A stretch of DNA of 64,000 nt. Origin: an uncultured Chloroflexia bacterium (GTDB taxonomy: Bacteria; Chloroflexota; Anaerolineae; Anaerolineales; Anaerolineaceae). The notes below the pieces were generated by a model that saw only the letters and a list, made by a program, of their open reading frames with translations, was not told the origin of the DNA and made no database searches. The stretch spans positions 466,977-530,976 of the forward strand of contig CAWDSH010000001.1 in the NCBI GenBank assembly GCA_963804865.1, read 5' to 3'. Positions 6,946 through 26,533 of this stretch are shown in pieces. Numbering within the stretch: the first letter of the stretch is position 1; each line of letters starts with the position of its first letter. The translations under genes and the position numbers were made by a program.

Positions 6946-6994
6946 CCTGGAGATGGGATTTGGTAAATTCTATCATATACACAAATAATGTATT

Positions 6995-7028
6995 AAATAA
7001 AAAACTGGCAGGTCTCTCGACCTGCCAG
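6995..7028 (-). terminator. Intra-operon hairpin/attenuator after phnD
   Basis: On the minus strand, ctggcaggtc-gaga-gacctgccag is followed by ttttttattt. It sits between the phnD stop (7039) and the phnC start. Confidence 0.6.
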
Positions 7029-7038
7029 AATGACTAAA

Positions 7039-8067: not shown

Positions 8068-8195
8068 ATTACTTCTCCTCTCCAAAGATTTGAATTTGGG
8101 AATATTGAATGTGCCTTTGCACAATATTTATCATAACAAAAAGAAGTTATCTTTACAAGATGATTATCTTAATAAATGTGAACAAGTGACATTTA

Positions 8196-10311: not shown

Positions 10312-11246
10312 GATTCATTCTCAGACTTTCTTCTCCTCTTTTTTATAAGCACCAATATGATATAAAGAAAAGCCGCCAGGAAAAGAACAATCGAGAAAGT
10401 AATCGCTATTTTTAGTAAAGAATCAGACTGTTTATTATAGTAAATTGGCGTGGGAGTTGGTGATAATCCAAGTGGGGGTATCTTTGTCAACGTTGCGGTT
10501 TTTGTTGGTGTCCCCGATGTCGCACTTGGTTCAAGGGACATGGTTATTGTTGATGTATTTGATGGTAAAGGTGATGCTGTTCTCGTCCAGGTGGATGATC
10601 GATAGATCACATTACTCAGTGTTCGAGTTTTTGTAACTGTCCGCGTTACTGTCTTGGTATGAGGTGTTGATGTGATCTTGGTTTGTGTTGGTGTTCTGGT
10701 TCTTGTGGTTGTTTTTGTTCTAGTTGCAGTTGAAGTCTGAGTAAGGGTGACTGTTCTTGACGGGGTTAAAGTCCATGTTGTTGTGCGTGTTGGTGTAAAA
10801 GTAAATGTTGCATTACGAGTTCTGGTCACTGTGGGCGTGAAGGTCCCAAATCCAAAAGTTGTGAAAATCGGTCCATAAAACTCGGATTGATTATTAAAAT
10901 CAACCACTTCAAGTTTATAGAAATATGTCTCACCAATTAGTGGAGTAGTATCTTCAAATGAATATTCTGCGCCTTCGATGCTTCCCCCAGTATGAGCAAT
11001 GAGATCATCGTGAATCCGCAAATAGGTCCCATTTTCTGCATTTGAGCGCAGCACATAGAATCCAAGAATATCAAACTCGGATGCCGTGCCCCAATTGATC
11101 AGAATACTACCTGTTCCTGGCTCAGCGGTGAAATAGGTAAGTGTAACTGCAGCTTGGACAACACCTGGTAGGATAAACAACATCCCAATAATTGCACCCA
11201 GCAGTAATAGCCGGAAAAGTCTAGTCAGCAGGCGTTTTATCGGCAA
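10308..11246 (-). CDS. Secreted, C-terminally anchored protein: signal peptide, FN3/Ig-like beta-sandwich, long Thr-rich linker, TM helix and basic tail
   Basis: TTG start. Signal peptide RLLLLGAIIGMLFILPGVVQA. Beta-sandwich pattern INWGTASEFDILGFYVLRS..YSFEDT..YFYKLEVVD. C-terminus IAITFSIVLFLAAFLYIILVLIKKRRRK. Confidence 0.7.
   Translation of the reverse strand: MPIKRLLTRLFRLLLLGAIIGMLFILPGVVQAAVTLTYFTAEPGTGSILINWGTASEFDILGFYVLRSNAENGTYLRIHDDLIAHTGGSIEGAEYSFEDTTPLIGETYFYKLEVVDFNNQSEFYGPIFTTFGFGTFTPTVTRTRNATFTFTPTRTTTWTLTPSRTVTLTQTSTATRTKTTTRTRTPTQTKITSTPHTKTVTRTVTKTRTLSNVIYRSSTWTRTASPLPSNTSTITMSLEPSATSGTPTKTATLTKIPPLGLSPTPTPIYYNKQSDSLLKIAITFSIVLFLAAFLYIILVLIKKRRRKSENES
10449..10844 (-). 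repeat. Low-complexity coding region with alternating Thr (TxTxT, TRT/TPT/TKT) of about 130 codons
   Basis: TFTPTVTRTRNATFTFTPTRTTTWTLTPSRTVTLTQTSTATRTKTTTRTRTPTQTKITSTPHTKTVTRTVTKTRT... This is a compositional repeat, not an exact tandem repeat. Confidence 0.8.
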
Positions 11247-11524
11247 CTATCCCTGCTTTTTGCAAATGCTTTATAAAACTATCTGTTTCGATTAATGCTT
11301 TATCCGGACTTACATCAAATTCCTGGTAAATGATATCTGCGATTTCCGTTCACGGAACGCTGGCTATTGATCAATTGCCAAATTCTCGTTCCAACTTCAT
11401 TCAGGACTTTTACTTTGCCTTTATCAGGAATAACGATAATAGCGCCATCATCCACCGGCTCACCAATGACATCAACGCAGAGCTGGGGTACAAACGAATA
11501 GTCATTGTGTGTCTCTTTTTTCAT
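11221..11524 (-). pseudogene. PqqD-family (RRE-type) peptide-binding protein of about 100 aa, with one 1-nt frame disruption near 11350 (possibly an assembly indel)
   Basis: ORF 11315..11524 reads ..DDGAIIVIPDKGKVKVLNEVGTRIWQLINSQRSV. The next frame continues TEIADIIYQEFDVSPDKALIETDSFIKHLQKAGIV to a TAG at 11221. This fits the PqqD pattern (LN.tg..iW.li.g.rsv.eI...i...y.v......D...Fi..L...Giv). The ATGA start overlaps the upstream S26 gene. Confidence 0.75.
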
Positions 11525-11934
11525 ATGATTTCTTTACCAGTCAAGCGTCTATAGTTCAGAAATAATACAAAATAAATTCTTCCGATAATTGTTAAAATAA
11601 AATTCACTCCAGGAAAAATCCAATCATATAATTTGCTTTTTTTATCAATTGAGATCAATGTTCCAATAATTTCGCTGGAGGAAATTGATGCATCCGAATA
11701 TTTTTGATTATCACCCTTGGAAAAATAACGATTTTCAAATTTTCCTATGATCCGGTGCAAAAGAAGTCCACCTGGTTTTTTTATCAATACGATATTGCCA
11801 ATATTATAGGTTTTTCGTTCCCGAAAATCGATCAACACCCAATCATTATGTTTCAATAGAGGTAACATGCTCTGCCCTACCACCTTAAACCGGGCGTGAT
11901 CAACCTTCACTTCGGGGCGTGATTGGGTTTTCAA
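11521..11934 (-). CDS. S26/S24-family serine peptidase (SipW/archaeal-type signal-peptidase fold) with no N-terminal TM segment and one C-terminal TM helix
   Basis: VVGQSMLPLL (Ser box), LLLHRIIG (His box) and FSKGDNQKYSDAS (GDN..D box). The C-terminal hydrophobic segment is WIFPGVNFILTIIGRIYFVLFLNY. Confidence 0.65.
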   Translation of the reverse strand: MKTQSRPEVKVDHARFKVVGQSMLPLLKHNDWVLIDFRERKTYNIGNIVLIKKPGGLLLHRIIGKFENRYFSKGDNQKYSDASISSSEIIGTLISIDKKSKLYDWIFPGVNFILTIIGRIYFVLFLNYRRLTGKEII

Positions 11935-11949
11935 ATTCAGGCCTTACAA

Positions 11950-14900
11950 CTAATTCTTAACAAATGGAAAGAAGATTTTATTATTCAGGGTGGCAGGGAT
12001 GCGCAATTGGGTCGCCGGATCACCAAATATCGTATACGAATTGATGATCGAGTAATCAATACCGCTCCCAAACAGATTTAGCTTGGCTCCAAGCACCGCA
12101 CTCCCTAGAGTGTTCCCATTCGTTTGGGTTATTTGATCGAAAAATCCTCGAAGAAGCCAATCATGTTGATCGCTGGTGCCAAAACCTGTAGGAGAAAATG
12201 CTGCCACTGCTCCACCAGCCTCTCTTTTAAGAAAATTCTCTGCCAGACTTATTGTTGCTGAGGTTTTGTCGGCATAGCTCCAATAGCCATCAAGACACGT
12301 AAGAGAAAAAATGACAGGCAACTCACCCAGGTTAGACAATGATGCAACATCGCTATTATAAAAGAAACGAGAGTTGTAACCCCATCCATTGACTCCGCCA
12401 TGACCATTATATAGAACTACAGAAACTCCGTTATTGATACCATTTATCAAGTCTTCTCTGGCTTCAGGACAAGCCGCACCAGAACTACAGGGATAATCGG
12501 GTAAATATATCTTTTGAAAATCCATCCCAAGCGAAGAATAATCCGCGAGAAAGGAATCCATTTCTGTTGTGAAATCGCCGGCCTCATCCGGGAAATAGGC
12601 AGAAGCGATCATCCGGTTTTGCCAGGGATAATCCACGGGGTTGATGGGAATATTTTCATACGAAATGATCTTGTCAATCACATCAGACAATTCCTCTGTT
12701 GTATTGACTGGGATGCGGCCAATCAATAGATCAGGAAGCGGGTCATCGCCATCTACTGCAGCAAGAAGGCTGGAGCTATCCACTTCGCCCTGGATTTCAT
12801 CCACCCACGCCAGGTTGGGTGGCATATAGATCGGCGAAGTTCCATATATATCAGGATTGTATCCTTTAAAATTCCAATGACCGTCGCCTATAAGAACAAT
12901 GTAGGTCGGAGCTGGTGAACGCCATTCATGATAAGCGTAATCCAGGAAAGCATGAATGGCCGCCGGGATTTCAATCCCGTAGCTGAACTGATTGTAGATA
13001 TCATCCAGGTGCACGATCTGGCCGCGCAACCCCTGACTTATCCGGTGGTCAACCAAGCGTTGAACCTGTGAATCGAAAATGGGATCACTGATGGCAACAA
13101 AATCTGCACCATTGAAATGCGAATGAAGATCTGCTCCGTTGTACAAGTCGATCTGGATTGGATTCAATATCTTCTCTTCCCCTGCCAGATAATACCTGGT
13201 ATCGAGGGTTGGTGAGGTTTGGAATGTGACTTTCCCAGAATCAATCACACCATTTTGGATTCTCTTGGGAAGCAAGGGATTTGTGATATCAAGTACAAAA
13301 ATGCCCGGTGAAACGAAATTTTCTACCTCGAATTCCAATTCACCGTCCTGCGGTGAGCGAAAATTCAATTCATCATTCAATGCTCTAAAGAGACGGTCGT
13401 ATTCAACTTCAAACCAGTTGAAGAGAATTGCATCCGAGCCTTGACCCACATCCGTTAGCACTTCAAACTTCAGATTGTTCGCTCCTGGAAGTAACGAAGA
13501 ATTGCTCACATTTCCTGAAAATTGGTGAGATATCTTCCCATCCCACGTTGAATCTTCAATCAATGTGCTTGTGTTGATCCAGAACCGTGTGTGGTGGTCC
13601 GGATTTACATTCGGATTATTAGCTTGAGCATTAACTTCTCCATAGATGGTGGCATCCCCTCCGCTGTTAGCAACATCAAATAACTCAACTGGAAATTCCA
13701 TTGAAATTGAACTACTTGTGGATAATTCATTCCAAAACCAAGTATCTTCAGAGTTAAAGTGGTAAGTTCGCCAACGCATGTTTTGTTCAGAGTGTGATAT
13801 TGACCGGAAATATGACGGAGGAGTCAGGCTATCATTGATCGGGTTCCCGTCGATTTCTTCCATAAATATTGCTTTACCATTAAAATCAATCCAATATACA
13901 TTTTCATCAGTATATTTTTCAACCATCGTGGCATTGAAGGTTGGTCTCCAACCGGTTGAATAATCGTTCCACCAGGTATCTTCCTGGTTAAATAATTCTG
14001 CTAAATGCTGCCCGTAAAGTTTTTGACCATAGAAGAGGAAGGCTTCCCCTGCTTCAAACAAACCATTCTCATTTTCGTCTTCCGGCAGGATGGCTACACT
14101 CTCTCCCTGACAAGAAAAACCGACTGAAGTATATGGGATGTCAGAATATGTGATTCCAGCTGTTGTCAGATCTTCAAATGTAACCCTGTATAGCCCATCT
14201 TGATTGACCTTCAACTTCACTTTTTCGATAAAGCTCTCAGACATCGCATTCACTTCGAAAGATTCTGAAGTGACATCACCAATCCGCCAATCTTTTGCAG
14301 CAGCATAATTAACCAGCTCCTGGGCAAGAGCCATATCAAATGGGGAATTCTCCAATTCCTTATGGTTTATTGACATCGATGCCACGTCATCAAAATCTAT
14401 TCGGATGCGAATAGTTCGATTCCAAAGCAATTCACCGGTTACAGGATTATATTGAAAAGGAAATACCTGCAGGTTGGCTATGCGATGTTGCCTAACAATT
14501 GAATCAGAACTGCCACTTACCAGCGCGTCTGGGAAAAACGCATTACGTTGATAAATGTTTTCGTCTTCAATCCTGGAATAATCAACTGCGGGAAATTCAT
14601 TTTGATAAGATATGATCTCGCTTTCAGATGGTAAAATCCTGAATTCTCCCGGCAATGAAACAAACTCACCGCTCGTTACTGATATTCGATAACCACCTGT
14701 CTGAGGTAGACCAAAAGATAGGCTTTTTACAGGCAACTCAGGGGAACCTGCCGATGAAAAAGTATTGGTACCCGGAATTGTTAATCGTTGATAGACAATT
14801 CCATCAATGTCCATTGATTCGAGCTCATAATTGGGAAAATGAAATTCAAGAGTAAAACCCGAACTGTCTGATTTCAATAATTCAAATAATCCGGAATCCT

Positions 14901-14985
14901 TATTATCAGATTGGGAATCAAAAGTTAGAGGAAAACACCCCAGTCCTAATATTAAGATCAGGCTAAATAGTAATCTCCAGGTCAT
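11950..14985 (-). CDS. Large secreted gingipain-like cysteine peptidase (C25 propeptide plus C25 catalytic domain)
   Basis: Start trimmed to MTWRLLFSLILILGLGC. The 15147 extension would overlap the upstream gene. Propeptide-like DIDGIVYQRLTIPG..AGSPELPV. Catalytic-domain block YIVLIGDGHWNF. His motif VVLYNGHGGVNGW and Cys motif IFSLTCLDGYW. Confidence 0.8.
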   Translation of the reverse strand: MTWRLLFSLILILGLGCFPLTFDSQSDNKDSGLFELLKSDSSGFTLEFHFPNYELESMDIDGIVYQRLTIPGTNTFSSAGSPELPVKSLSFGLPQTGGYRISVTSGEFVSLPGEFRILPSESEIISYQNEFPAVDYSRIEDENIYQRNAFFPDALVSGSSDSIVRQHRIANLQVFPFQYNPVTGELLWNRTIRIRIDFDDVASMSINHKELENSPFDMALAQELVNYAAAKDWRIGDVTSESFEVNAMSESFIEKVKLKVNQDGLYRVTFEDLTTAGITYSDIPYTSVGFSCQGESVAILPEDENENGLFEAGEAFLFYGQKLYGQHLAELFNQEDTWWNDYSTGWRPTFNATMVEKYTDENVYWIDFNGKAIFMEEIDGNPINDSLTPPSYFRSISHSEQNMRWRTYHFNSEDTWFWNELSTSSSISMEFPVELFDVANSGGDATIYGEVNAQANNPNVNPDHHTRFWINTSTLIEDSTWDGKISHQFSGNVSNSSLLPGANNLKFEVLTDVGQGSDAILFNWFEVEYDRLFRALNDELNFRSPQDGELEFEVENFVSPGIFVLDITNPLLPKRIQNGVIDSGKVTFQTSPTLDTRYYLAGEEKILNPIQIDLYNGADLHSHFNGADFVAISDPIFDSQVQRLVDHRISQGLRGQIVHLDDIYNQFSYGIEIPAAIHAFLDYAYHEWRSPAPTYIVLIGDGHWNFKGYNPDIYGTSPIYMPPNLAWVDEIQGEVDSSSLLAAVDGDDPLPDLLIGRIPVNTTEELSDVIDKIISYENIPINPVDYPWQNRMIASAYFPDEAGDFTTEMDSFLADYSSLGMDFQKIYLPDYPCSSGAACPEAREDLINGINNGVSVVLYNGHGGVNGWGYNSRFFYNSDVASLSNLGELPVIFSLTCLDGYWSYADKTSATISLAENFLKREAGGAVAAFSPTGFGTSDQHDWLLRGFFDQITQTNGNTLGSAVLGAKLNLFGSGIDYSIINSYTIFGDPATQLRIPATLNNKIFFPFVKN

Positions 14986-14995
14986 ATGAGCCCAG

Positions 14996-16420
14996 TTAGA
15001 TCTTTCGTTTGAAGAATTGACTGGCAAAAACAACAACGAGGAAGAAACCGAGAACAGGGAAGATGTATCGTTGACTTGGGGAAGACTGCGCAGTGAAATC
15101 AACCAGTGTAAGAGCAGTGGGATTCGTCCCCTCAAAACTACCGGCAACGAATGGAGTTCCCCCCAAATCCACGTATGTTAAGCCGGATATTTCGAGATCG
15201 TTTAAGCCGTAATGGTTAAGGGTTGCGCTTGGCAAAGTCGCAGCATTCACCATCGGCCAGCATGTTTTTAAAGTCGGCGAACTGGCACATAGATCGAATT
15301 GGGTGTCATTTGTTGGAGATGCTGGAATAAAGAATACATCCCTTTTTGCCCAAACTTCTTCATGACACGCAGTATCAAGGTCGACGGGCAAAACGATCGT
15401 ATAAGGATCACTGGAGGTCGCTTCAATCGTGAAGAAATCATAGTAATCCGAGCACATACTTGATACCCAGGGTTCAATCCCATTACCAAATGGAGCATTA
15501 CTGGGTGATCGACCAAAGGTCACAATCACGTTAATTCCATCTGAACCCCCTGTCAATTGCGCAATCCCAAGTGTTGCACCTAATGGAGCAATTCCTGCAT
15601 TCCAATCGACAATTTCTGCTCCCAACCTTGTATTCCACCAGGAATCACTCGGAGGGTCAACTTCATATGTTGGCATAGTGGCATCATCATACACACCCCA
15701 CCAATTATGGGATAAATTAAAAATCCCATAACTCTGAGCACGTAATGAATATGTAAAACCAATGAAATTATTGGCAAAAGCTAAAATAGAACCCTCTGCG
15801 TCATAATTGATTGGTGAAGCTGATGCAATGCCTGTTGAATTAAAAGTGTTGCCAACGATCAAAACATCTCCAATCCCACCATCATCAATAAGACCAATAT
15901 AACAGCCATCAATATTTGTATTTGTGATAGCCAGATTTCCATCCGGTTCTACGCCATCAGCAATCATGCGAATTGCAGATATATTATCATTAAGGCAAAC
16001 AATCGTTAAATCCCTGAAAGCAAAATCTCCCTCCATGATTTCAAAAATTGGAACTGTTGCATTAGTTCCCGTTGCTATTATTTGACCTTCACCATTTAGG
16101 CTGTCTATCGTCAGCGGATATTCACCAAGATAATTATCATCAATATCCTTTGGTCCACTTCGAATGGGAGTTGTCGAATTATCAATATAATTGGTGCCAA
16201 TAAAAGTCAACGTCGAAGCGGAGCTATCCACGAGATTATCGATAGCTGTAAAGATATCCGTATAACAGGGAATCAGAGATGGATTCGCATCACATGTTGC
16301 TTGATCTGGAGCTACATAAACATGATCGTAAATCTGCATCCTGGGAGCCGCAGATACATGTTGTGAAAATAATAAAAAGATAAAACAAGTGATGATTAAT
16401 ATTCTTATTGTAGTCTTCAT
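14996..16420 (-). CDS. Secreted right-handed beta-helix (pectate-lyase/NosD-like) repeat protein with a C-terminal TM anchor
   Basis: Start trimmed to MKTTIRILIITCFIFLLFSQHVSA (signal peptide) after an AAGGGG Shine-Dalgarno sequence. Repetitive I.N..I.G segments (LAITNTNIDGCYIGLIDDGGIGDVLIVGNTF). C-terminus YIFPVLGFFLVVVFASQFFKRKI. Confidence 0.6.
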   Translation of the reverse strand: MKTTIRILIITCFIFLLFSQHVSAAPRMQIYDHVYVAPDQATCDANPSLIPCYTDIFTAIDNLVDSSASTLTFIGTNYIDNSTTPIRSGPKDIDDNYLGEYPLTIDSLNGEGQIIATGTNATVPIFEIMEGDFAFRDLTIVCLNDNISAIRMIADGVEPDGNLAITNTNIDGCYIGLIDDGGIGDVLIVGNTFNSTGIASASPINYDAEGSILAFANNFIGFTYSLRAQSYGIFNLSHNWWGVYDDATMPTYEVDPPSDSWWNTRLGAEIVDWNAGIAPLGATLGIAQLTGGSDGINVIVTFGRSPSNAPFGNGIEPWVSSMCSDYYDFFTIEATSSDPYTIVLPVDLDTACHEEVWAKRDVFFIPASPTNDTQFDLCASSPTLKTCWPMVNAATLPSATLNHYGLNDLEISGLTYVDLGGTPFVAGSFEGTNPTALTLVDFTAQSSPSQRYIFPVLGFFLVVVFASQFFKRKI

Positions 16421-16435
16421 GCTTACCCCTTTGCC

Positions 16436-16475
16436 AAAAACAATCTGGGTCCGTCGTTCCTGACAAAACCCAGAG
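16436..16475 (-). terminator. Hairpin plus short T-run between the small ORF and the beta-helix gene (possible attenuator)
   Basis: On the minus strand, ctctgggt..(17-nt loop)..acccagat is followed by tgtttttgg. It lies about 35 nt after the small-ORF stop and about 16 nt before the next start. Confidence 0.3.
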
Positions 16476-16510
16476 AGCAAATCAACATTCTATTCAACGT
16501 AACTTTTTTA

Positions 16511-16684
16511 TCAAGGATTACTGTCATTATCCAATCCTAATGGATCCAATGGATCCACTCCCAAAGGTGAACCTAGAGGGACGGACCCGGCGCGAACTTC
16601 CAGGTCCATTTCGATCATGATCCTGGGAGTCTCATATTTCTTCTTTTTGTTATCAAGCTCATCCATATCGATACTTTTCATCAT
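16511..16684 (-). CDS. Untracked 57-aa ORF, a candidate leader-core precursor-like peptide
   Basis: My translation is MMKSIDMDELDNKKKKYETPRIMIEMDLEVRAGSVPLGSPLGVDPLDPLGLDNDSNP. It falls below the 60-aa cut-off of the ORF track. It fills an otherwise empty 290-nt gap and has its own promoter-like element. Whether it is coding is unproven. Confidence 0.45.
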   Translation of the reverse strand: MMKSIDMDELDNKKKKYETPRIMIEMDLEVRAGSVPLGSPLGVDPLDPLGLDNDSNP

Positions 16685-16707
16685 CAATAGTTTGGTGATT
16701 AAATTGG

Positions 16708-16736
16708 ACTATAGCATACTTCAATATCGGTTGCAA
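16708..16736 (-). promoter_or_regulatory. Sigma70-like promoter in front of the 57-aa ORF
   Basis: On the minus strand, TTGCAA-N17-TATAGT, with the -10 element about 24 nt upstream of the ATG at 16684. Confidence 0.4.
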
Positions 16737-16772
16737 GCAATCGTACTTTACTGTTGGTTTACAATAATCCCC

Positions 16773-18077
16773 TCAATTATTAGTAATAATTGACCAAAAA
16801 GTGTTATCTTTCCGAAAACCCAGCTCATATGAGCTGCAGGCATCGGCAATTTCCTCGCACCTCTTTATAACAAGTGGTAAAAGCGTTTTTTCAGAAGTCA
16901 ATACTGGAGTGTTGGCCAGTAATGCAGCTATTGCATAATTCTTCCCCATTTTCTTAATATTGACCTTTAGTGATTTATTAATTTGATAAATTCCTTTAAT
17001 CTTGGCTCCATTATTTTGAGGAATCTCCCTTGTTGGATTCCAGAAAGGTGTTGAAAAAGCGCTCCAGCTTCTTCCAATAGGTTTGGTTGCAACGAGGTCA
17101 TCACTCAATACTTGATCTCCAGCATCGATATATTTTGTAATCGTTGTTTTTCCACTCCCGGAATGACCCATGAAAATATAAGCTTTATCATTCCGCTTAA
17201 CCCCTGCAGAATGAAGCAATAATCCTCCTGATCGGAAGATGAGAATTGAGAAGATTATTCTCATTAATATCTCCAAATCTGCATTGCCTAAATCCTTATG
17301 GGCGATAATATCTCCGGTTTTTCTAGAAAAATCGATTTTTACTTTTATCTTTTTTGTTTGATAGTGCAATACTTTTATGTCATGTGAAATCAATAATGGA
17401 ATTTCAGAAAACTCATTTTGATTTGCATCTAAGATTCCAATGTGCAAATCAATTCGATCCGGGGTATCCAGAATAAAATTCTTGTATCTTTGGATCAAAT
17501 CAGAAAAATGATTTTCTTCATATAGAAATTCGAGGTTGCATCCACCGATGGAAAAGACCTTGCTTTCTTTTGTTTTTCGACCAATCTTCTGAAAATATCT
17601 TCTCCCAGCGTATATGAAGAAAAGCAGCATACAAATAATGCCTGGAAAAAATAAGTAACTGCTCCATGACATTGCTTTCACAGGCACAGGACCGAATAGG
17701 TTCCCCCTTGACCCTTCACTCCTGACTTCTTCTAAATAATATTGGTACTCACGACCATTAATTAGGTGATTGTCCGTAAATGTGTAGTTTTCCCCAGTAA
17801 ATGCACCTCCCCTTTTTTCAATGAACGTGATCAATTGTCTATTATGCTCTACTTCATCGAACCGGAAAATATTGAAACCGGTGATACCCACCTCGGATAC
17901 TGTTTCCCATTTCACTTCGACTATGGCATTATCGTTACATATCAGGGATAGAGATAGAAAAATAGTTCCAATGAGTAATACCAACCATTGGAGATAGGAT
18001 CTCAAAACTCTATTGAGCATAAAAAGATTATACACAATCACATCCCTGGATAATTCCAAGTAGCATATTACTTGCAT
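16773..18077 (-). CDS. Bitopic membrane protein: TM, extracytoplasmic FN3/Ig-like domain, TM, cytoplasmic HPr-kinase-C-like P-loop kinase domain
   Basis: P-loop block GGLLLHSAGVKRNDKAYIFMGHSGSGKTTITKYI..VLSDDLV, typical of HprK-C/HprK-related kinases. TM1 is WLVLLIGTIFLSLSLI and TM2 is YLFFPGIICMLLFFIYAG, followed by RRYFQKIGRK. An alternative start exists at 18020 (MLNRVL..). Confidence 0.7.
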   Translation of the reverse strand: MQVICYLELSRDVIVYNLFMLNRVLRSYLQWLVLLIGTIFLSLSLICNDNAIVEVKWETVSEVGITGFNIFRFDEVEHNRQLITFIEKRGGAFTGENYTFTDNHLINGREYQYYLEEVRSEGSRGNLFGPVPVKAMSWSSYLFFPGIICMLLFFIYAGRRYFQKIGRKTKESKVFSIGGCNLEFLYEENHFSDLIQRYKNFILDTPDRIDLHIGILDANQNEFSEIPLLISHDIKVLHYQTKKIKVKIDFSRKTGDIIAHKDLGNADLEILMRIIFSILIFRSGGLLLHSAGVKRNDKAYIFMGHSGSGKTTITKYIDAGDQVLSDDLVATKPIGRSWSAFSTPFWNPTREIPQNNGAKIKGIYQINKSLKVNIKKMGKNYAIAALLANTPVLTSEKTLLPLVIKRCEEIADACSSYELGFRKDNTFWSIITNN

Positions 18078-18104
18078 CCCCTTATTCCGGAGAAGATGTT
18101 CTTC

Positions 18105-18133
18105 TTGACAGAATATGACCTCTTCTCTAGAAT
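18105..18133 (+). promoter_or_regulatory. Near-consensus sigma70-like promoter of the EPS operon
   Basis: TTGACA-N17-TAGAAT, about 38 nt upstream of the ATG at 18171. Confidence 0.5.
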
Positions 18134-18170
18134 TTCATTAGCAAGTTTTGCATGAAGAATAGGTGTAAAC

Positions 18171-19808
18171 ATGACCATGCCACCCGTAAATATTCAAGCT
18201 GATACCGATAATATTGATATCAGGCAGTATTTGGGCCTGATTTGGCAATGGGCTTGGTTAATAATTTTGATCACGATTTTAGCTGGTGTGATTGCATTCT
18301 TCGTCAGCCAGCAAATCACACCAATTTACCAGGCATCCACGACTCTTTTAGTTAATGAAGCTCCATCCACAAGAACTACAGATTACACATCTGTTCTTGC
18401 CAGTGAAAGGCTTACCCGAACATACGCTGAAATGATGTTGACGCAACCCATTCTTGCGACTGTAAACGAACAACTCACATTGGGTGTCAATTTCGAAGCA
18501 TTACGATCATCTATTTCAGTTGAACCAATCAAGGATACTCAATTAATCCAGATAAAAATTGACTCAATTGATCCGAATCGAGCTGCCATGATTGCAAATA
18601 CCCTGGTTTCGGTTTTTTCCAGCCAAATCCAATCATTGCAAGCTGAGAGATTCATGGTTTCAAAACAAAGTTTACAGGATCAATTGGCAAATATTGATTC
18701 TCAGATCCAGCACTTCACCGAGCAATTGGCTCGAACATCGGATGCCACAGAAAGGGATCGGATTGAATCAAATGCCGCGCAGTATCGTCAGATCTATTCA
18801 AATTTATTGCTTAGCCTCGAACAGGTACGGCTGGCTGAAGCACAGACGACCTCGACCGTAGTTCAAGTTGAGCCGGCAATTCCCAATAGCACTCCTATTC
18901 GACCAAAGATTATTAACAACACTGTAATTGCAGCGCTTTTGGCAATGCTTTTAACGATCGGTTTAATTTTTACTATTGAAGCATTGGACGATACGATCAA
19001 AACACCTGATGAAGTCAATAAGATCTTGCACCAACCTGTCCTCGCATTGATCGCGCATCATACATTCGAAGAGGGTAAACCAATTACAGAAGCCCAACCC
19101 AGGTCTCCTGTTTCAGAAGCTTTTCGGACTTTACGGACCAATGTTCAATACGCCAGCGTCGATCGTCCACTTCGAACATTGTTGATTACCAGTCCGGATC
19201 CAGGTGAAGGTAAAACGACTATTGCCGTGAATCTGGCTCTTGTACTTGCACAAAGTGGAAGACGTGTAATTCTGATCGATGCCGATCTTCGGAGACCGGC
19301 GATCCACCGTCAATTCCGATTGCCCAATAAGATGGGATTGAGTACCCTGTTTTTCCAATCCGAAGTGAAATTGGATGGAATCCTTCAGTTGACCCGGATA
19401 CCCAATCTATCTTTAATCACTTCGGGAGATTTACCGCCCAATCCATCCGAATTATTGGGATCTCAAAAAATGCATTTGATCCTTGAAAAAACCCAGGCAC
19501 TTGCTGATGTTGTTATCATTGATACTCCTCCTACGTTGGCTGTCACAGATGCCTCGGTGTTAATGCAAGTCGTCGATGGCGCACTTCTTATCATCCAACC
19601 TGGCGTGACTCGCATGGGCACAGCCATGGGCGCCATCGAGCAATTCCAGCGGGTAGGGTCAAAGATACTGGGTGTTGTATTTAATAACGTTGAGCTAAGT
19701 CGGGGTAGATATCGATATCGATACTATAAAGATTATCATGGTTATGGTTCATATTATTACTACAAAGGTTACCGAGACGATCAAAGATCACATCGAAATA
19801 AAAAATGA
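18171..19808 (+). CDS. Polysaccharide co-polymerase (Wzz domain) fused to a BY-type tyrosine autokinase
   Basis: Wzz-like N-terminus with two TM segments. Walker A SPDPGEGKTTIAVNLA and Walker A' ILIDADLRRP. C-terminal Tyr cluster RYRYRYYKDYHGYGSYYYYKGY. Confidence 0.9.
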   Translation: MTMPPVNIQADTDNIDIRQYLGLIWQWAWLIILITILAGVIAFFVSQQITPIYQASTTLLVNEAPSTRTTDYTSVLASERLTRTYAEMMLTQPILATVNEQLTLGVNFEALRSSISVEPIKDTQLIQIKIDSIDPNRAAMIANTLVSVFSSQIQSLQAERFMVSKQSLQDQLANIDSQIQHFTEQLARTSDATERDRIESNAAQYRQIYSNLLLSLEQVRLAEAQTTSTVVQVEPAIPNSTPIRPKIINNTVIAALLAMLLTIGLIFTIEALDDTIKTPDEVNKILHQPVLALIAHHTFEEGKPITEAQPRSPVSEAFRTLRTNVQYASVDRPLRTLLITSPDPGEGKTTIAVNLALVLAQSGRRVILIDADLRRPAIHRQFRLPNKMGLSTLFFQSEVKLDGILQLTRIPNLSLITSGDLPPNPSELLGSQKMHLILEKTQALADVVIIDTPPTLAVTDASVLMQVVDGALLIIQPGVTRMGTAMGAIEQFQRVGSKILGVVFNNVELSRGRYRYRYYKDYHGYGSYYYYKGYRDDQRSHRNKK

Positions 19809-20869
19809 ATCCCAATTCCAGGGGCGTGATATCCACAAAAGTTAGAGTCGCCCCCACAGTGTCAATTATTATTCCCACGTATAACGAAGAAGCGTTTATA
19901 GATAATTGCATGGATTCAATATTGAATCAGGATTTTCCAGGAATAATTGAAATTTATATAATTGACGGTGATTCCAATGACGGAACGAAGATAAAACTTG
20001 AAGATTGGTTGAAAAAGGATTCCAGAATAAAACTTATTAATAACCCCCACCGATATCAAACAAGTGCCTTGAACCTTGGTATCAAAAAAAGTAAGGGGGA
20101 CATCATTGTTCGCATTGACGCTCATGCAGTATATGCATCCAATTATGTAAGTGAATGTATTTTTGCTTTTGAGCGATCCCACGCTGGTTGCGTAGGTGGT
20201 GGGGTTAACCTCCTCCCCGGTGAAGATTTTTTATCAAAATTGATTGGACTTGTACAAAAGAATCTACTTGGTTCCGGCATCGCCAAATTCAGGAGACAAT
20301 CCTATGAAGGGTATGTCGATACGGTTTGGCCGGGTGCTTATCACCGTTCTATTTTTGAGAAGGTTGGGTATTTTCGTGAATACTTGACCCGTACAGAGGA
20401 TCTGGATTTTCATGCTCGTATGCGGCAATTGGGTTATACCATCTATCAAACCCCACGGATAAAACCATATTACCACCCGAGAACCAGTCTTTTATCCCTA
20501 TTTCATCAATACTTTGGAAATGGCCAACAGGTCATTACAACATTGGTGGTGAATGCCGAAGCGATCTCCTTGCGACATCTTGTTCCATTTATTACGAGCA
20601 CTTTATTCATTCTTGTTTTGATTCTTGGAATTTGGGATAAAACTGGAATGCCCATTTCCTGTGGATTTGTAGGATTTTATTTACTATTGCTTCTTTTGGC
20701 ATCAATATCAATTGGGATAAATAATGGGATCAAATATTTTTTCGCATCGCCCCTCATTTTCGTAGTAATTCACATTAGCTATGCACTTGGTTCATGGAGC
20801 GGATTATTCTTACTATTGAGAAATTGTTTTAATGTGAATAGAGTTTTTAAAGAAAACTTTGCGAAATGA
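19805..20869 (+). CDS. Family 2 glycosyltransferase with a C-terminal membrane domain
   Basis: VSIIIPTYNEEAFI..IIDGDSNDGT and TEDLDF motifs, with 3-4 C-terminal TM helices. The start overlaps the upstream stop by 4 nt. Confidence 0.85.
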   Translation: MNPNSRGVISTKVRVAPTVSIIIPTYNEEAFIDNCMDSILNQDFPGIIEIYIIDGDSNDGTKIKLEDWLKKDSRIKLINNPHRYQTSALNLGIKKSKGDIIVRIDAHAVYASNYVSECIFAFERSHAGCVGGGVNLLPGEDFLSKLIGLVQKNLLGSGIAKFRRQSYEGYVDTVWPGAYHRSIFEKVGYFREYLTRTEDLDFHARMRQLGYTIYQTPRIKPYYHPRTSLLSLFHQYFGNGQQVITTLVVNAEAISLRHLVPFITSTLFILVLILGIWDKTGMPISCGFVGFYLLLLLLASISIGINNGIKYFFASPLIFVVIHISYALGSWSGLFLLLRNCFNVNRVFKENFAK

Positions 20870-21990
20870 TTACACCTGATCAGCTCGTAATCCCTATTAG
20901 TAAATGGACAGCTTCAATTGCAGAAGCCAGTAAAGATGGTATATATTCACAAAAACCACAATTTCGCCCCCTCCTGGCTTCGACTTGGTATCTCAATAAA
21001 AGGAGCTTGCTAGAAACTAAAGAAGCCGACATATGCGAGCAAACATATTTGCAAAATCGCTCCCGCTGGTTACGGTTCGAAAAGACTATAACTAATTCAA
21101 TTAATATTGTGTCATGCTCAAGAATAGAACTTGTTTTATTGAAAGGACTGGATTTTTTAACAACTTTATATCCGGATACAGGGATTAGGCATCTTGGTGA
21201 TGTGGATATTTTACTAAGACCGAATGATTTAATAAGAGCTGCCACTATTTTATTGAAAAACGGTTTTTTACTGGTTGGTATTAACGATAAGAAAGAAGCC
21301 ATTAAATGGCTAAAGATCTCTAAAGATATTCCAAGTGAACTTGTGCTTTTCCATAGATCAGGTCTTTATTTCGAATTACATCAGCATCTCGTTTCATCAA
21401 ATTGGTTTGAAGATGTATATCCAATTGATTTGGATCGTATTTGGGAAAATTCGGTTTTAAACAAATTCCTAAATGAACAATCGAACAATATTCGGGTATT
21501 ATCCCGCGAAGATAACATTGCTTACCTCATTCTCCATTTAGCGAATCATGGCATGGGATATCAAGCGCTTCATAATTATTTGGATTTGGATCTGATAATC
21601 CGAAATTCCCATAATGAACTAGATTGGTCCCTAATTCGGGAAAATATTATTTCATGGCGATTGTCAACTGCAGCAAACTTTATTTTTTCCTTCTGTTCTA
21701 AATACCTTGACACTCCTTTGCCGGATGATTTTCTTGATAGTTTGCCGCATCATTTATGGTCGAGGTTGGCAGTATTTCTTCTCTTAAAACCAGTGGATCT
21801 AATCACTGGTCGAGAGACATTGGGTGTAAAGTATCCCACACTGGTAAAAGTTGCAGTTATTGAACGATTCAGTGATCAAGTAAAAACGATTGTTAATGGA
21901 ATACTTCCTAAAAAAATACCTTTTCAACATCCAAGGAAGTCACTAAGCCATTGGTCAAATATGCTTAGGGCAATCAGGCGAGGAGATTAG
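20866..21990 (+). CDS. Uncharacterised nucleotidyltransferase family protein (NTP_transf_5/PF14907-like)
   Basis: LLKGLDFLTTLYPDTGIRHLGDVDILLRPNDLIRAATILLKNGF matches the family core (LKG..l....Y.....R...DiDlLv......a...L...GF). The start overlaps the upstream stop by 4 nt. Confidence 0.65.
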   Translation: MITPDQLVIPISKWTASIAEASKDGIYSQKPQFRPLLASTWYLNKRSLLETKEADICEQTYLQNRSRWLRFEKTITNSINIVSCSRIELVLLKGLDFLTTLYPDTGIRHLGDVDILLRPNDLIRAATILLKNGFLLVGINDKKEAIKWLKISKDIPSELVLFHRSGLYFELHQHLVSSNWFEDVYPIDLDRIWENSVLNKFLNEQSNNIRVLSREDNIAYLILHLANHGMGYQALHNYLDLDLIIRNSHNELDWSLIRENIISWRLSTAANFIFSFCSKYLDTPLPDDFLDSLPHHLWSRLAVFLLLKPVDLITGRETLGVKYPTLVKVAVIERFSDQVKTIVNGILPKKIPFQHPRKSLSHWSNMLRAIRRGD

Positions 21991-21998
21991 GAAAATCA

Positions 21999-23642
21999 AT
22001 GCCAGTTCCAATTCAGTCTGATGCTGCAAACCGACAAGATATGAGTGAACAGCTACACGATCTGCGATCATCTTCAAATTTACTTTTGAGACGGATATTT
22101 AATATTGTCACGGCTATTTTTGCATTATTCTTTCTTTTCCCCTTCCTATGCATAATTGGAATATTAATTAAATCTGACTCACCGGGTCCAATATTTTACA
22201 AAGCGAAAAGGGTTGGTAAGAACGGTAAAGAATTCGAAATGCTAAAATTTCGGACAATGTATAAATATGGCGATCAAAAGAACTCTTCTCCACTCTCTGG
22301 CGCAAACGATGAGAGAGTAACCCGCTTTGGAAAATGGCTTCGAGCCACAAAAATGAATGAACTTCCTCAAATCTGGAATGTTCTAAAAGGTGAAATGGAT
22401 TTCGTTGGTCCTCGACCCGAAGATCCATCATTTGTTGCCAAATGGCCGGAAGAGGTAAGGAATATTATCCTCTCTGTAAATCCGGGAATCACCAGCCCGG
22501 CTTCAATCATCTATCGAGATGAAGCGAGTATATTGGGTGAAAAAAACGTCATTGATAAATATCTTAGTAATATTTTACCCAGCAAGCTCCGACTGGATTT
22601 ACTTTATTTGCGCTTTCGAAATTTCTTAACAGACCTGGATGTATTTTTTCTTACTTTCATTCTTCTATTGCCAAATGTGAGAAAGATTTCCATCCCCGAT
22701 TCTCTTTACTACTCAGGACCATTTTCAATCTTCTTCTCAAGGTATTTAAACTGGTTTGTGATTGATTGCTTTATTGCTTTCCTTAGCGTAAGCACAACAG
22801 GAGTAATCTGGAGATTGAGCGGCCCACTCGACCTTGGCTGGGGATTGTCAATAATTGTTGGCATTGCTATCGCTCTCATCTTTAGTATTTTTAACGCAGC
22901 GTTAGGAGTTAACCGGATTGAATGGTCTCGTGCAAATTCCTCTGACGCCCTCGCTCTTGCACTATCTTGTGCAATGGCAACTGGCTGCTTGCTGCTTTTC
23001 AATCCCTATGTGGGTTTCAGCATTCCGTTACCGCCATCAATGATTGTAGTTGGCGGGTTGATTTCTTTCTTTGGTTTTGTGGTAATTCGGTACCGCGAAC
23101 GGATACTTACTGGATTGGCATCGAGATGGTTATATATTCGTGGTGGCGCACGGTCTATCGGCGAGCGGGTTCTACTTGTGGGCGCAGGTGATACGGGTGA
23201 ACTTGCGATTTGGCTTTTCTCACGTGGTCAATTAGCTCAAGCCTTCAACCTTGTTGGTTTTATTGATCATGATCCGCATAAAAAAGGATCAATTATAAGA
23301 GGATTACCAGTGTTGGGTTCACCGGAGATGATCCCTGAAATTTCCGAAAAGATGGATATTGGCCTTATTCTGATTTCCATACCCAATCTCCCGGTGAGTG
23401 AAAAGAAAGAACTTTTATCTTATTGCGAAAAAACTAACGCTCGCATCGTATTCTTTCCAAATATTGCGAAAATGCTACTGGAAAATATGATACCTGATGA
23501 GGAAACTCATGTTAATCGAGGTCAGATAAAAATTTGGTTGCTTGAAATCCAAAAAATGATCGAAAGTGAAAATAAAAAAGCTCTTAAAAAGAGAATCAGT
23601 AAATATCTGAAAATTCTGGATGAAAGCAGTGACCATGAATAA
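21999..23642 (+). CDS. Polyprenyl-phosphate phosphoglycosyl transferase (Bac_transf domain) with the TM and Rossmann-like module on the C-terminal side
   Basis: N-terminal SPGPIFYKAKRVGKNGKEFEMLKFRTM..RVTRFGKWLRATKMNELPQIWNVLKGEMDFVGPRPE, then about 5 TM helices, then VLLVGAGDTGELAI..LVGFIDHDPHKKGSIIRGLPVLG. Confidence 0.85.
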   Translation: MPVPIQSDAANRQDMSEQLHDLRSSSNLLLRRIFNIVTAIFALFFLFPFLCIIGILIKSDSPGPIFYKAKRVGKNGKEFEMLKFRTMYKYGDQKNSSPLSGANDERVTRFGKWLRATKMNELPQIWNVLKGEMDFVGPRPEDPSFVAKWPEEVRNIILSVNPGITSPASIIYRDEASILGEKNVIDKYLSNILPSKLRLDLLYLRFRNFLTDLDVFFLTFILLLPNVRKISIPDSLYYSGPFSIFFSRYLNWFVIDCFIAFLSVSTTGVIWRLSGPLDLGWGLSIIVGIAIALIFSIFNAALGVNRIEWSRANSSDALALALSCAMATGCLLLFNPYVGFSIPLPPSMIVVGGLISFFGFVVIRYRERILTGLASRWLYIRGGARSIGERVLLVGAGDTGELAIWLFSRGQLAQAFNLVGFIDHDPHKKGSIIRGLPVLGSPEMIPEISEKMDIGLILISIPNLPVSEKKELLSYCEKTNARIVFFPNIAKMLLENMIPDEETHVNRGQIKIWLLEIQKMIESENKKALKKRISKYLKILDESSDHE

Positions 23643-24647
23643 TCCATTATTGGGAAAACGCGTACTGGTTTCGGGTGCGGGTGGTTTCATAGGCAGCTCT
23701 CTCGTTGATCAACTTGTAAAAAGCGGAGCGAAGGTCAGGGCATTTGTCAGATATAACAGCCGCGGAGACCCTGGTCTTTTGCATTATTCCTCCAAGGATA
23801 TTCTTAATAAAATTGAAATCATAGCAGGAGATATCAAGGACTATCATGCTGTTTTAAAAGCATGTGAAGACATGGAATATGTTTTTCATCTCAGCGCATT
23901 CATTTCCATCCCTTATTCTTACATTCACCCTTTTGAAGTTATTGAGGTAAATGTCCTGGGGACAACAAATATTCTCTTGGCATGTAAAGAGTATAGGATT
24001 GAAAAAATCATACATACCTCAACCAGCGAGGTTTATGGGACTGCGCAATCCATTCCTATGAATGAAGAACATCCGCTAAAGGCACAATCTCCTTATGCAG
24101 CTAGTAAGATTGGTGCGGATAAAATCGTGGAGAGTTTCTACTGCTCTTATGGACTACCGGTTATTACTCTTCGACCATTTAATACCTACGGACCACGTCA
24201 ATCCCTTCGAGCGGTCATTCCATCGATAATCACCCAGGCACTTCGGGGGAAAAATATAAGAGTTGGAAATCTGGAGAGTATCAGGGATTTCACCTATATC
24301 ACTGACACCGTTGATGGCTTTATTCAAGCAGCCTCCACCGCGATTCCATTTGGCAGCACGATCCATCTTGGAACAGGTACTGCAGTCACCATTGCTGAAT
24401 TAATAAATAAGAATAGAAACAATTTTTGGCAGCAAATTGAAAGTTGAAGTTGATTCCAAGTTACGTACGTCCACCCCATTCCGAAGTTGGGCGTCTGATA
24501 TCAGATAATCAATCCGCAAAAAGATTGATGAATTGGCTACCCAAGATTGATTTGAATCAAGGATTGGTTGAAACCATCAAATGGTATAAAGAACATCCGG
24601 ATTTTTATGAGAATTCAGTCGTTTTTCACATAAAGGATAGATTATGA
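23620..24647 (+). pseudogene. NAD-dependent sugar epimerase/dehydratase (extended SDR), with a frame change near 24420-24447
   Basis: GKRVLVSGAGGFIGSSL, STSEVYG and YAASKIG (YxxxK) are in ORF 23620..24447. The conserved C-terminus (RPPHSEVGRLISDNQSAKRLMNW..GLVETIKWY) is in the next frame, 24444..24647. Confidence 0.85.
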
Positions 24648-25357
24648 AAGCTGTCATCTTGGCGGGAGGACGGGGAACACGGTTAGCGCCATACACTAGG
24701 ATATTCCCAAAACCGATGATGCCCATCGGGGATAAAACCATCCTTGAAATATTGCTTCTCCAATTAAAGCATTTTGGAATCACCGATATTGTCCTGACCA
24801 TAGGACATTTATCAGGGTTAATGCGTGCGTTTTTTCAAGATGGAAAACAATTGGGTGTTAATATTGAATACAGTTTTGAAGAAGAACCTTTAGGTACCGC
24901 CGGCCCATTAAAAATGATAAAAGATCTGGATGAGACTTTTATCGTTTTAAACGGTGATGTATTAACAAATCTCGATATTAACAAGATGGTTGATTTTCAC
25001 AAGATTAATGATGGCGTGGCCACAATAGCAATGCATGAATACCAAGTATTCATTGATCTTGGGATTATCAACCACGATTTGGAGAATCATATAATCGGTT
25101 ATATTGAGAAACCAACGCTAGAATACAATGTCAGCATGGGGATATATATATTTGAACCAAAAGTATTGGACTTCATCCCCGAGCAGAAATATTACGATTT
25201 CCCCGAATTGGTTAAAAATTTGATTGCCCATAATTTAAATGTTATTGGTTATCCCTTTAATGGATATTGGAAAGATCTGGGCAGACCAATTGATTATGAA
25301 CAAGCCTGTAATGATTTTGAAAACATGCGGTCCACGTTTCTTGATGAGGTCCACTAA
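24644..25357 (+). CDS. Sugar-1-phosphate nucleotidylyltransferase (NTP_transferase family)
   Basis: MKAVILAGGRGTRLAPYT..PKPMMPI, EEPLGTAGPL. Confidence 0.88.
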   Translation: MKAVILAGGRGTRLAPYTRIFPKPMMPIGDKTILEILLLQLKHFGITDIVLTIGHLSGLMRAFFQDGKQLGVNIEYSFEEEPLGTAGPLKMIKDLDETFIVLNGDVLTNLDINKMVDFHKINDGVATIAMHEYQVFIDLGIINHDLENHIIGYIEKPTLEYNVSMGIYIFEPKVLDFIPEQKYYDFPELVKNLIAHNLNVIGYPFNGYWKDLGRPIDYEQACNDFENMRSTFLDEVH

Positions 25358-26502: not shown

Positions 26503-26533
26503 TCCCTTTCTGATTTTTGATTAGAATATCAAT

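Follow-up and report, generated by a model that had tools for sequence, protein, structure and literature searches.

The stretch of DNA analysed here (the window) comprises 64,000 nucleotides from an uncultured Chloroflexia bacterium classified in the Anaerolineaceae (GenBank assembly GCA_963804865.1, contig CAWDSH010000001.1, positions 466,977 to 530,976 of the forward strand). On its minus strand, at 16773..18077, an intact open reading frame (ORF) encodes a fused protein of 434 amino acids, in which a membrane hairpin module is joined to a P-loop kinase-like enzyme of the ScmC type, with the HprK/phosphoenolpyruvate carboxykinase (PEPCK) fold. The original prediction, made from the sequence alone, described this protein as an HprK-like kinase built like a transmembrane receptor, and missed the system to which it belongs: a cluster for a ribosomally synthesised and post-translationally modified peptide (RiPP) that resembles those of the linear polyphosphorylated peptides (LPPs), with a precursor, a PqqD-family RiPP recognition element (RRE), a peptidase resembling signal peptidase I (SpI), a nucleoside triphosphate (NTP) transferase, and C25 peptidases.

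Architecture and topology of the fused protein

The AlphaFold2 model of the fused protein, built on an 88-sequence alignment (mean predicted local distance difference test score 90.1, predicted TM-score 0.69), consists of a helix at residues 4–46, six strands between residues 51 and 134, a helix at residues 138–165, a beta-rich subdomain at residues 171–260, and an alpha/beta P-loop domain at residues 265–434. Two hydrophobic segments, at residues ~28–47 and ~138–158, reach Kyte–Doolittle 19-residue means of up to 2.24 and 1.92, respectively. The first corresponds to transmembrane (TM) helix 1 (17937..17996, on the minus strand like all parts of the protein), which is probably an uncleaved signal-anchor, and the second to TM helix 2 (residues ~138–160; 17598..17666), which runs into a Lys/Arg-rich cytoplasmic linker, with seven Lys or Arg among the 23 residues that follow the helix (residues 158–180). 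Between the helices lies an extracytoplasmic FN3-like beta-sandwich (residues 51–134; 17676..17927), which is supported by the alignment of related modules and gives Foldseek matches to FN3 domains with a TM-score of 0.57; searches of Pfam and NCBIfam assign it to no family and give only faint FN3-like hints. The cytoplasmic ScmC-type core (residues 170–434; 16776..17570) comprises the beta-rich N-terminal subdomain and the P-loop domain, and is recognised by invariant alignment columns, by weak matches to the NCBIfam ScmC, HprK_rel_A, and HprK_rel_B families, and by Foldseek and HHalign comparisons.

The predicted topology, in which the N-terminus is inside, the sandwich outside, and the kinase domain inside, is supported by hydropathy, charge bias, and a pair of complementary fusions. 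Among stand-alone copies of the module, Lys and Arg together average 4.55 on the predicted inside flanks versus 2.49 on the outside flanks, and the bias is seen in 83 of 110 cases. The sandwich would lie outside because the module is found fused to two nucleotide-dependent enzymes, a ScmC-type enzyme at its C-terminus and an NTP_transf_5 enzyme at its N-terminus, both of which are necessarily cytoplasmic. The arrangement proposed originally, two TM helices bracketing an outside beta-sandwich, is thus borne out, although the sandwich is slightly smaller than the predicted 100 residues or so, at about 85. The layout of a two-TM receptor, with an outside domain held between two membrane helices and a cytoplasmic catalytic domain, is likewise found by hydropathy, modelling, charge statistics, and the fusions, but what it represents is the joining of two adjacent conserved genes rather than the de novo fusion of a sensor. 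A promoter and terminator scan of positions 16300–18300 gave counts no higher than those in shuffled sequences. In the protein collection searched, the protein is assigned to a 90% cluster represented by an unrelated 52-residue fragment named "processing peptidase subunit beta".

From its sequence and modelled fold, the C-terminal half appears to be a ScmC-type sister family of HprK and the kinases of lasso-peptide clusters, with its catalytic constellation intact, which would make it a kinase. His289, the Walker-A motif G304-H-S-G-S-G-K310-T-T312, and the Asp326/Asp327 pair are invariant or nearly so in alignments of 14 and 88 sequences and constitute the catalytic candidates; they fall within the block LLLHSAGVKRNDKAYIFMGHSGSGKTT (residues 286–312) and the motif SDDLV (residues 325–329). 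The comparison of the model with HprK, suggested at the outset, gave a match: Foldseek retrieves ATP-dependent PEPCKs (E ~1e-7) and HprK/P (1knx, E = 7e-5), all with a probability of 1.00, and the catalytic domain of Lactobacillus casei HprK/P (1jb1) superimposes with a TM-score of 0.54 and a root-mean-square deviation of 4.1 Å over 167 columns. When the family profile is compared with sequences in the PDB, it matches the PEPCK 1j3b (E = 4e-5). The assignment to an HprK-like group therefore stands for the P-loop fold and for the conserved His, P-loop, and Asp-Asp residues, but not for membership of the Pfam family Hpr_kinase_C, whose profile does not match; homology to that family is reached indirectly, through Foldseek and through a protein of a lasso cluster. 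The latter is an unannotated 309-residue protein encoded just after the cyclase in a Sulfitobacter plasmid lasso cluster (PqqD, B2, and an asparagine-synthase-like cyclase), which passes the Hpr_kinase_C threshold (33.7 bits against a cut-off of 33.3) and aligns by HHalign with the kinase family of the window at a probability of 97.3% (E = 2.3e-11) over 161 columns, covering residues 268–428 of the window protein. A tblastn match on a plasmid in Streptomyces was set aside as weak and of unrelated context. The ScmC-type family is large, as an exhaustive profile search returns 1,492 cluster representatives below 1e-30 and 29,556 below 1e-3, and the newer Pfam ScmC family, PF27840, is precomputed on four relatives of the window protein (P0002, P0009, P0010, and P0012) and marked "weak" on a fifth (P0001).

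The hairpin module forms a family of its own. A profile built from twelve modules retrieves 319 proteins, and the best 120 of these are 133–232 residues long (most 140–190), contain no Pfam domain, are called "hypothetical" where they are named, and come from Anaerolineae where an organism is given. Invariant positions in the module alignment follow the pattern W.T.SE..G..R / G..Y..D / G..Y.Y..E..G. Mean pairwise identity is 43% in the ectodomain, 41% in the P-loop domain, and 16–19% in the TM helices, and the linker between TM helix 2 and the kinase domain has none of 12 residues identical between the window protein and its relative P0002. With a conservation that matches that of the catalytic domain, the ectodomain is evidently selected for a specific interaction or partner and is not a mere spacer. 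The outside domain is also homologous, as had been noticed at first reading, to that of the neighbouring protein at 10308..11246 (31% identity over 80 residues by BLASTP, E = 1e-6; module profile, E = 7e-25). In one relative (L003, 11093..12258), the genes for NTP_transf_5, module, ScmC, and PqqD are directly followed by those for an extracytoplasmic function (ECF) sigma factor and a TM/beta-domain/TM protein with a cytoplasmic N-terminus, whose beta-domain (W.E...F.VYR ... Y.L.D ... Y.V.ALD.NG) gives it the appearance of an anti-sigma factor with a related ectodomain; the module profile does not match this protein.

The window protein is a Rosetta-stone fusion of two subunits that, in most relatives, are encoded by separate, adjacent, and translationally coupled genes. 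A 1.73 Mb NCBI/ENA contig carries the identical 434-residue product, and the same continuous, colinear architecture, with the module on the N-terminus of the ScmC-type enzyme, occurs in four further proteins from other samples: P0001, from a Logan assembly, is 80% identical to the window protein; P0002, from ENA, is 43% identical by BLASTP; and P0026 and P0069 are more distant. The fused form is rare, accounting for 4 of the best 150 cluster representatives among the 29,556 family members (the 150 being those whose architecture was inspected), nearly all of which are about 270 residues long. In a distance tree of the catalytic core, the window protein, P0001, and P0002 form an exclusive clade, while P0026 and P0069 each have unfused nearest neighbours outside it, so the fusion would have arisen at least twice independently, as counted on a crude neighbour-joining tree. 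The module gene lies directly upstream of a soluble ScmC-type gene in five loci (L003, L009, L010, L011, and L012), often with a 4-base overlap (ATGA), and a few genes away within the same cluster in L007 and L008. In a metagenome-assembled genome (MAG) of Anaerolineae (L015, 493..2022), the module is instead attached to the C-terminus of the NTP_transf_5 enzyme in a single 509-residue ORF, which is followed by genes for a soluble ScmC and PqqD. By the module profile, the hairpin is present in every Chloroflexota-type locus fetched, and not in the Deltaproteobacteria or Acidobacteriota loci. Together, the complementary fusions predict, as Rosetta-stone evidence, a complex of the NTP_transf_5 enzyme, the hairpin, and ScmC; and as the fusion joins two adjacent and widely conserved genes, the soluble ScmC-type relatives most likely work with the same membrane partner.

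An artefact, in which an indel in an error-prone assembly joined two neighbouring genes, had been named as a possible cause of the fusion. The window does contain frame-split genes, including those for PqqD, the second C25 peptidase, PhnC, and the FGGY kinase, and both parts of the protein are separate genes with a 4-base overlap in many relatives. The continuous fused frame in four proteins from independent samples and assemblers, complete with a proper Lys/Arg-rich linker, nevertheless rules this explanation out for practical purposes and leaves it extremely improbable.

Precursor peptide and surrounding gene cluster

Just downstream of the kinase gene, at 16511..16687 on the minus strand, lies the gene for the precursor peptide, of 58 amino acids (57 when counted from the second Met). 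The peptide has a leader with an RRE-type motif (Y18..P21), a segment L29-E30-V31-R32-A33-G34-S35, and then an acidic core rich in Pro, Gly, and Leu. It belongs to a 111-member family with counterparts in L001 (6047–6223), L002 (1909–2079), L011 (5334–5498), and L012 (9389–9580), and with the consensus (R)KPY.KP.I[IV].E.[DE]LE[VT]RAGSP[LI]G.PDPLDPL, as drawn from 60 of the 111 sequences; Y18, P21, L29, E30, and A33 are invariant, and Ser or Thr occupies the position aligned with Ser35. Between the window and L002, the gene shows 23 synonymous and 3 non-synonymous codon differences, with the last 33 residues identical, while the accompanying kinases are only 43% identical. This pattern of substitution marks 16511..16687 as a real gene, whose product is evidently a precursor under strong selection.

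Variants of the precursor linked to radical SAM/SPASM enzymes (L007, L008, and, in Acidobacteriota, L013) keep the pattern Y..P...LE.xA.[ST] and have Cys-rich cores ending in a C-terminal Ser (..CTVITS, ..CTTLQS, and ..CPGGPITS). The clusters of this type, with YEKP-leader precursors, lie at 2312–3770 in L007, 2674–3930 in L008, 5499–7501 in L013, and 11154–12239 in L006, and all four contain the ScmC, PqqD, and radical SAM/SPASM arrangement. In L013, such a precursor is paired with a C25 peptidase of 1501 residues that has FN3 repeats. A lasso-peptide precursor, which would have Gly1 and an Asp at position 7–9, was considered for the window peptide and rejected, because the Asp can stand anywhere from position 7 to position 12 and neither a cyclase nor a B2 protease is present.

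The gene order module, ScmC-type enzyme, small peptide, C25 peptidase, PqqD, anchored FN3 protein, and second C25-like peptidase is shared by the window and two Chloroflexota MAGs (L011 and L012); the second C25-like peptidase is seen in L012, and the L011 contig ends at the anchored protein. Beyond this order, the window has a 494-residue anchored protein, an S24/S26 peptidase, and, past a divergent pair of genes for a Wzz/tyrosine autokinase and a GT2 glycosyltransferase, the NTP_transf_5 enzyme. Relatives of the system as a whole are found in Chloroflexota (Anaerolineae and Chloroflexia MAGs), Acidobacteriota, and Deltaproteobacteria.

The PqqD-family RRE (11247..11524, minus strand) is recognised by PF05402 (23.4 bits) and ScmD (3.4e-5), and is frameshifted in the assembly, as frame analysis indicates: its ORF ends at 11315, while EIADIIYQEFDVSPDKALIETDSFIKHLQKAGIV, the C-terminal half, lies in another frame. 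Among the ORFs scanned, PqqD is not accompanied by a radical SAM gene, and the window accordingly lacks a ScmC cassette of the radical SAM type. Upstream of PqqD on the same strand, at 11521..11934, is an archaeal-type SpI-like (S24/S26) peptidase (TIGR02228, 1.3e-9; Peptidase_S24, 30.3 bits, above cut-off), whose Ser22, His60, and Asp75 are invariant with the L007 and L013 homologues, and which is the candidate leader peptidase, analogous to LppS. The NTP_transf_5 nucleotidyltransferase-like enzyme (20866..21990, plus strand; PF14907, 2e-32), an analogue of LppN and PsmN, is encoded directly upstream of the module and ScmC genes in L003 and L004, and is the enzyme to which the module is fused in L015.

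Two peptidases of the gingipain/PorU type and one anchored protein would form the extracytoplasmic part of the cluster. The C25 cysteine peptidase with its propeptide (11950..15147, minus strand; Peptidase_C25, 1.6e-75; Propeptide_C25, 3.8e-27) has counterparts beside ScmC and PqqD in L007, L008, L009, L011, L012, and L013. Its ORF as listed starts at a TTG codon and overlaps the upstream gene by ~150 bases, and a likelier start is the Met of MTWRLLFSLILILGLGC, at ~14985, which gives a signal-like N-terminus. The C25 peptidase was also considered as an Arg-specific leader peptidase cutting at LEVR|A, a possibility rejected on the grounds that the variants of the radical SAM type lack the Arg and that the characterised leader peptidase of LPPs is the SpI-like one. 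The second C25-like peptidase (8196..10311, minus strand) is broken into four ORFs in the window and is intact, with 744 residues, at the same position in L012 (14199–16433). Between the two peptidases, at 10308..11246 on the minus strand, is the anchored surface protein, recognised by BLASTP and by the module profile, which consists of a signal peptide, an FN3-like domain like that of the module, a Thr/Pro-rich linker, and a C-terminal TM anchor, and which has orthologues in L007, L009, L011, and L012.

The 494-residue protein (14996..16480, minus strand) has an N-terminal signal sequence and a C-terminal TM anchor, is of unknown function, matches no Pfam or NCBIfam family, and is an addition of the window and L001 lineage, with a partial homologue in the same place in L001. 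Just ahead of its anchor, the segment LTLVDFTAQSSP is similar to the opening strand (VTL..F.A) of the FN3-like domain found in the anchored proteins. A CBM_4_9 protein in L008 ends similarly, with VTLSDISAVQTSP and a TM helix; the pre-anchor segment of these two proteins may serve the C25 peptidases as a sorting signal. The divergent polysaccharide genes (Wzz/tyrosine autokinase and GT2; 18171..20869, plus strand) embed the cluster in an exopolysaccharide (EPS) or capsule locus, with the same synteny in L001, and the genes of the locus comprise Wzz/tyrosine kinase, GT2, Bac_transf, epimerase, DegT, and LCP. On the other side, the cluster adjoins what looks, on reading of the sequences, like a phosphonate- or phosphate-type ABC importer (4080..8124, minus strand; substrate-binding protein, split ATPase, and fused permease). 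Its adjacency to a putative peptide-phosphorylating system is notable, though probably incidental.

Relation to known peptide-tailoring and signalling systems

The closest characterised system is that of the LPPs, described by Popov et al. (Nat Commun 2026, PMC13381572). Their core genes encode an archaeal-type SpI-like peptidase with a Ser/His/Asp triad (LppS), a discrete RRE (LppB), an HprK-like kinase (LppK), an uncharacterised NTP transferase (LppN), and an MsbA-like exporter; the precursors carry the motif YxxPxVLxHQxIxFETxxS and are cleaved after T-1 by LppS with the assistance of the RRE, and LppK polyphosphorylates Ser3 of the core (PMC13381572). LPP clusters sit in capsular polysaccharide loci and are stated to be restricted to Bacillota (PMC13381572). 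Compared through the published description of LppK, four of the five core genes have counterparts in the window, namely the peptidase, RRE, kinase, and NTP transferase. The two systems also share a YxxP leader, which in the window precursor reads Y18-E-T-P21-R-I ... L29-E30-V31-R-A-G-S35, a conserved Ser a few residues past the cleavage site, a capsule or EPS locus, and the lack of a lasso cyclase.

The differences are equally distinct. The window system belongs to Chloroflexota, with relatives in Acidobacteriota and Deltaproteobacteria, whereas LPPs belong to Bacillota, and its kinase is of the ScmC type and fails the Hpr_kinase_C profile. A TM–FN3–TM module is fused to the kinase or adjacent to it; such a module is not mentioned in the LPP paper, in which the word "transmembrane" does not occur (PMC13381572). 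No MsbA-like exporter was seen among the ORFs scanned or read over 35 kb, one or two C25 peptidases and an anchored FN3 protein appear as extra conserved members, and the precursor core is nearly invariant, in contrast to the variable core of LPPs.

Other relatives of the kinase are less similar in their setting. The HprK homologues of lasso clusters (PadeK, ThcoK, and PsmK) act on the linear precursor while it still carries its leader, phosphorylating a Ser; a nucleotidyltransferase (PsmN) decorates the phosphate, and the RRE of these systems recognises a [Y/W]xxP leader (PMC8498205). The Sulfitobacter protein described above ties them to the window family by sequence; they differ in that they are stand-alone proteins (309 residues in the Sulfitobacter example) for which no TM module is described in the publications consulted, that their target is the C-terminal Ser, and that a macrolactam cyclase and a B2 protease accompany them, neither of which is present in the window. 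Of the named families, ScmC of the SynChlorMet cassette (TIGR04249/PF27840) scores best with the kinase half, and the window PqqD protein best matches ScmD, but the window lacks a radical SAM enzyme, its precursor lacks Cys, and ScmC itself has neither a membrane module nor a known function. HprK/P and ATP-PEPCK share the P-loop fold, the preceding His, and the following Asp-Asp pair, yet act on other substrates, and neither the Hpr_kinase_C nor the PEPCK_ATP profile matches the window protein; HprK/P is moreover a regulator of carbon catabolite control, found outside any peptide-tailoring cluster. Receptor kinases, such as sensor histidine kinases and Ser/Thr kinases of the PknB type, have the same succession of outside domain, membrane span or spans, and cytoplasmic kinase, but their catalytic folds are unrelated. 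The window protein also lacks a HAMP domain, a DHp domain, and a juxtamembrane transducer, and its outside module is separable and is also fused to a non-kinase enzyme. Neither kinases nor Chloroflexi come up in two papers on RRE mining, and a literature search for C25 together with PqqD and Chloroflexi gave no relevant result.

Proposed function and its alternatives

The protein is best regarded as two fused, conserved subunits of a hitherto undescribed relative of the LPP pathway in Chloroflexota, rather than as a sensor kinase that arose anew. By analogy, the fused protein is probably, with considerable room for doubt, the membrane-tethered kinase of an LPP-like RiPP pathway, in which the hairpin tethers the enzymes and docks an outside partner. 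In such a pathway, the PqqD RRE would bind the YxxP leader and present the precursor, as in the LppK and lasso systems, and the kinase domain would use ATP to phosphorylate the linear precursor at a Ser, and possibly to polyphosphorylate it there. The likeliest acceptor would be the invariant Ser35 in LE[VT]RAGS, three to four residues past the predicted cleavage site. The NTP_transf_5 enzyme may then decorate or extend the phosphate, and the SpI-like peptidase would remove the leader. The hairpin would tie the tailoring enzymes of the cytoplasm to the membrane, while its ectodomain may dock a partner on the outside; candidates are the mature peptide, a C25 peptidase, and the anchored FN3 protein. 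In this way, modification would be coupled in space to export and surface processing, and in the lineage of the window a non-covalent complex would have become a single polypeptide.

Several observations weigh against this proposal. The window protein matches neither Hpr_kinase_C (PF07475) at E ≤ 0.1 nor TIGR00679; its best named family, ScmC TIGR04249, is matched with E = 3.9e-6 and 26.4 bits against an equivalog cut-off of 125 bits, and the NCBIfam matches to HprK-related kinase A (E = 5.1e-5) and kinase B (E = 1.5e-3) are likewise far under their cut-offs. A literature search for SynChlorMet and ScmC returned nothing relevant, the matches to "ScmC" being an unrelated acronym. The genes for PqqD and the second C25 peptidase are frameshifted in the window assembly, which is probably an assembly (indel) error rather than decay because other housekeeping genes in the window are split too: a phnC-like ABC ATPase gene (6174..6945, minus strand) and an FGGY sugar kinase gene (27932..29424, plus strand), each in two. 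Neither a Pfam scan nor reading by eye of the ORFs at positions 1..35042 revealed an MsbA-like or other exporter, and peptide export from the cluster is therefore unexplained. The partnership of the module with C25 peptidases is not obligatory, since the module of L003 lacks a C25 peptidase in the surrounding 10 kb and L013 encodes a C25 peptidase without the module. The phospho-acceptor residue is also a guess: the conserved Ser lies one residue farther from the leader motif than it does in LPPs, and the target could differ from Ser35, as lasso kinases act on a C-terminal Ser and the variants linked to radical SAM have one as their last residue.

The same evidence can be read in other ways, of which signalling is the most direct. 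In a true receptor kinase, the ectodomain would sense a ligand or partner, such as the mature peptide, the anchored FN3 protein, or the activity of the C25 peptidase, and the hairpin would switch the kinase, so that phosphorylation of the precursor is gated from outside. The conservation of the ectodomain, its occurrence on the neighbouring surface protein, and the anti-sigma-like protein next to the ECF sigma factor in L003, which hints that this type of hairpin can signal, are consistent with such a role. However, the linker between TM helix 2 and the kinase is short and unconserved, no signal-transducing element is recognisable, and the anti-sigma-like protein is missed by the module profile; the module is, moreover, mostly a separate polypeptide that is also fused to NTP_transf_5, which fits a scaffold better than an allosteric switch. 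We consider a receptor kinase unlikely on these grounds. Coupling to an extracellular cue is possible, since the ectodomain is as conserved as the catalytic domain, but it is unlikely that the hairpin acts as a coupling subunit and thereby makes the enzyme an HprK/PEPCK-fold receptor Ser kinase gated by the C25 peptidase, the FN3 protein, or the peptide.

The missing exporter invites another explanation, in which the hairpin belongs to export or processing, as an oligomeric conduit or an adaptor that replaces the MsbA-like exporter, and fusion to the kinase channels the modified peptide. LPP clusters have a dedicated ABC exporter (PMC13381572), whereas the Chloroflexota clusters examined lack one and always have the module, and the C25 peptidases, being extracytoplasmic, imply some form of export. 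A channel is, however, poorly supported by two TM helices of low conservation that show no pattern of polar or charged residues, and there is no energy-coupling component, while an exporter could be encoded elsewhere in the genome; this role is accordingly judged improbable. Of similarly low probability is the view that the C-terminal domain is not a peptide kinase but another ATP-dependent enzyme of the PEPCK/HprK fold, such as a small-molecule phosphotransferase or an ATPase, or a kinase with a protein substrate, for example the tyrosine autokinase or the EPS machinery. In the PDB, ATP-PEPCKs do indeed match better than HprK in both structure and sequence, the Pfam HprK profile is unmatched, and the cluster is embedded in polysaccharide genes. 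Against this, the family is associated with a PqqD RRE and a YxxP peptide across Chloroflexota, Acidobacteriota, and Deltaproteobacteria, it shows profile-level homology to the Hpr_kinase_C protein of a lasso cluster over the whole catalytic domain, and the characterised LPP and lasso precedents use exactly this set of enzymes.

If the receptor interpretation were true, the protein would define a novel class of receptor kinases in bacteria, and surface processing would feed back on cytoplasmic RiPP tailoring in the monoderm-like envelope of Chloroflexota. On the favoured interpretation, as part of an LPP-like pathway, the locus indicates that the cytoplasmic toolkit of the LPP type, comprising an HprK-fold kinase, an RRE, an SpI-like peptidase, an NTP transferase, and a YxxP precursor, exists in Chloroflexota and beyond, and it gives the uncharacterised ScmC family its first concrete functional hypothesis. 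The almost invariant precursor core and the position of the cluster in a polysaccharide locus suggest a structural or cell-envelope role for the peptide rather than that of a fast-evolving antibiotic. The Rosetta-stone fusions predict a membrane-bound tailoring complex and, with it, a conserved extracytoplasmic branch of C25 peptidases and FN3 proteins that is absent from the Bacillota systems, and the fused protein would provide a convenient single-chain handle on the link between cytoplasmic peptide phosphorylation and surface processing.

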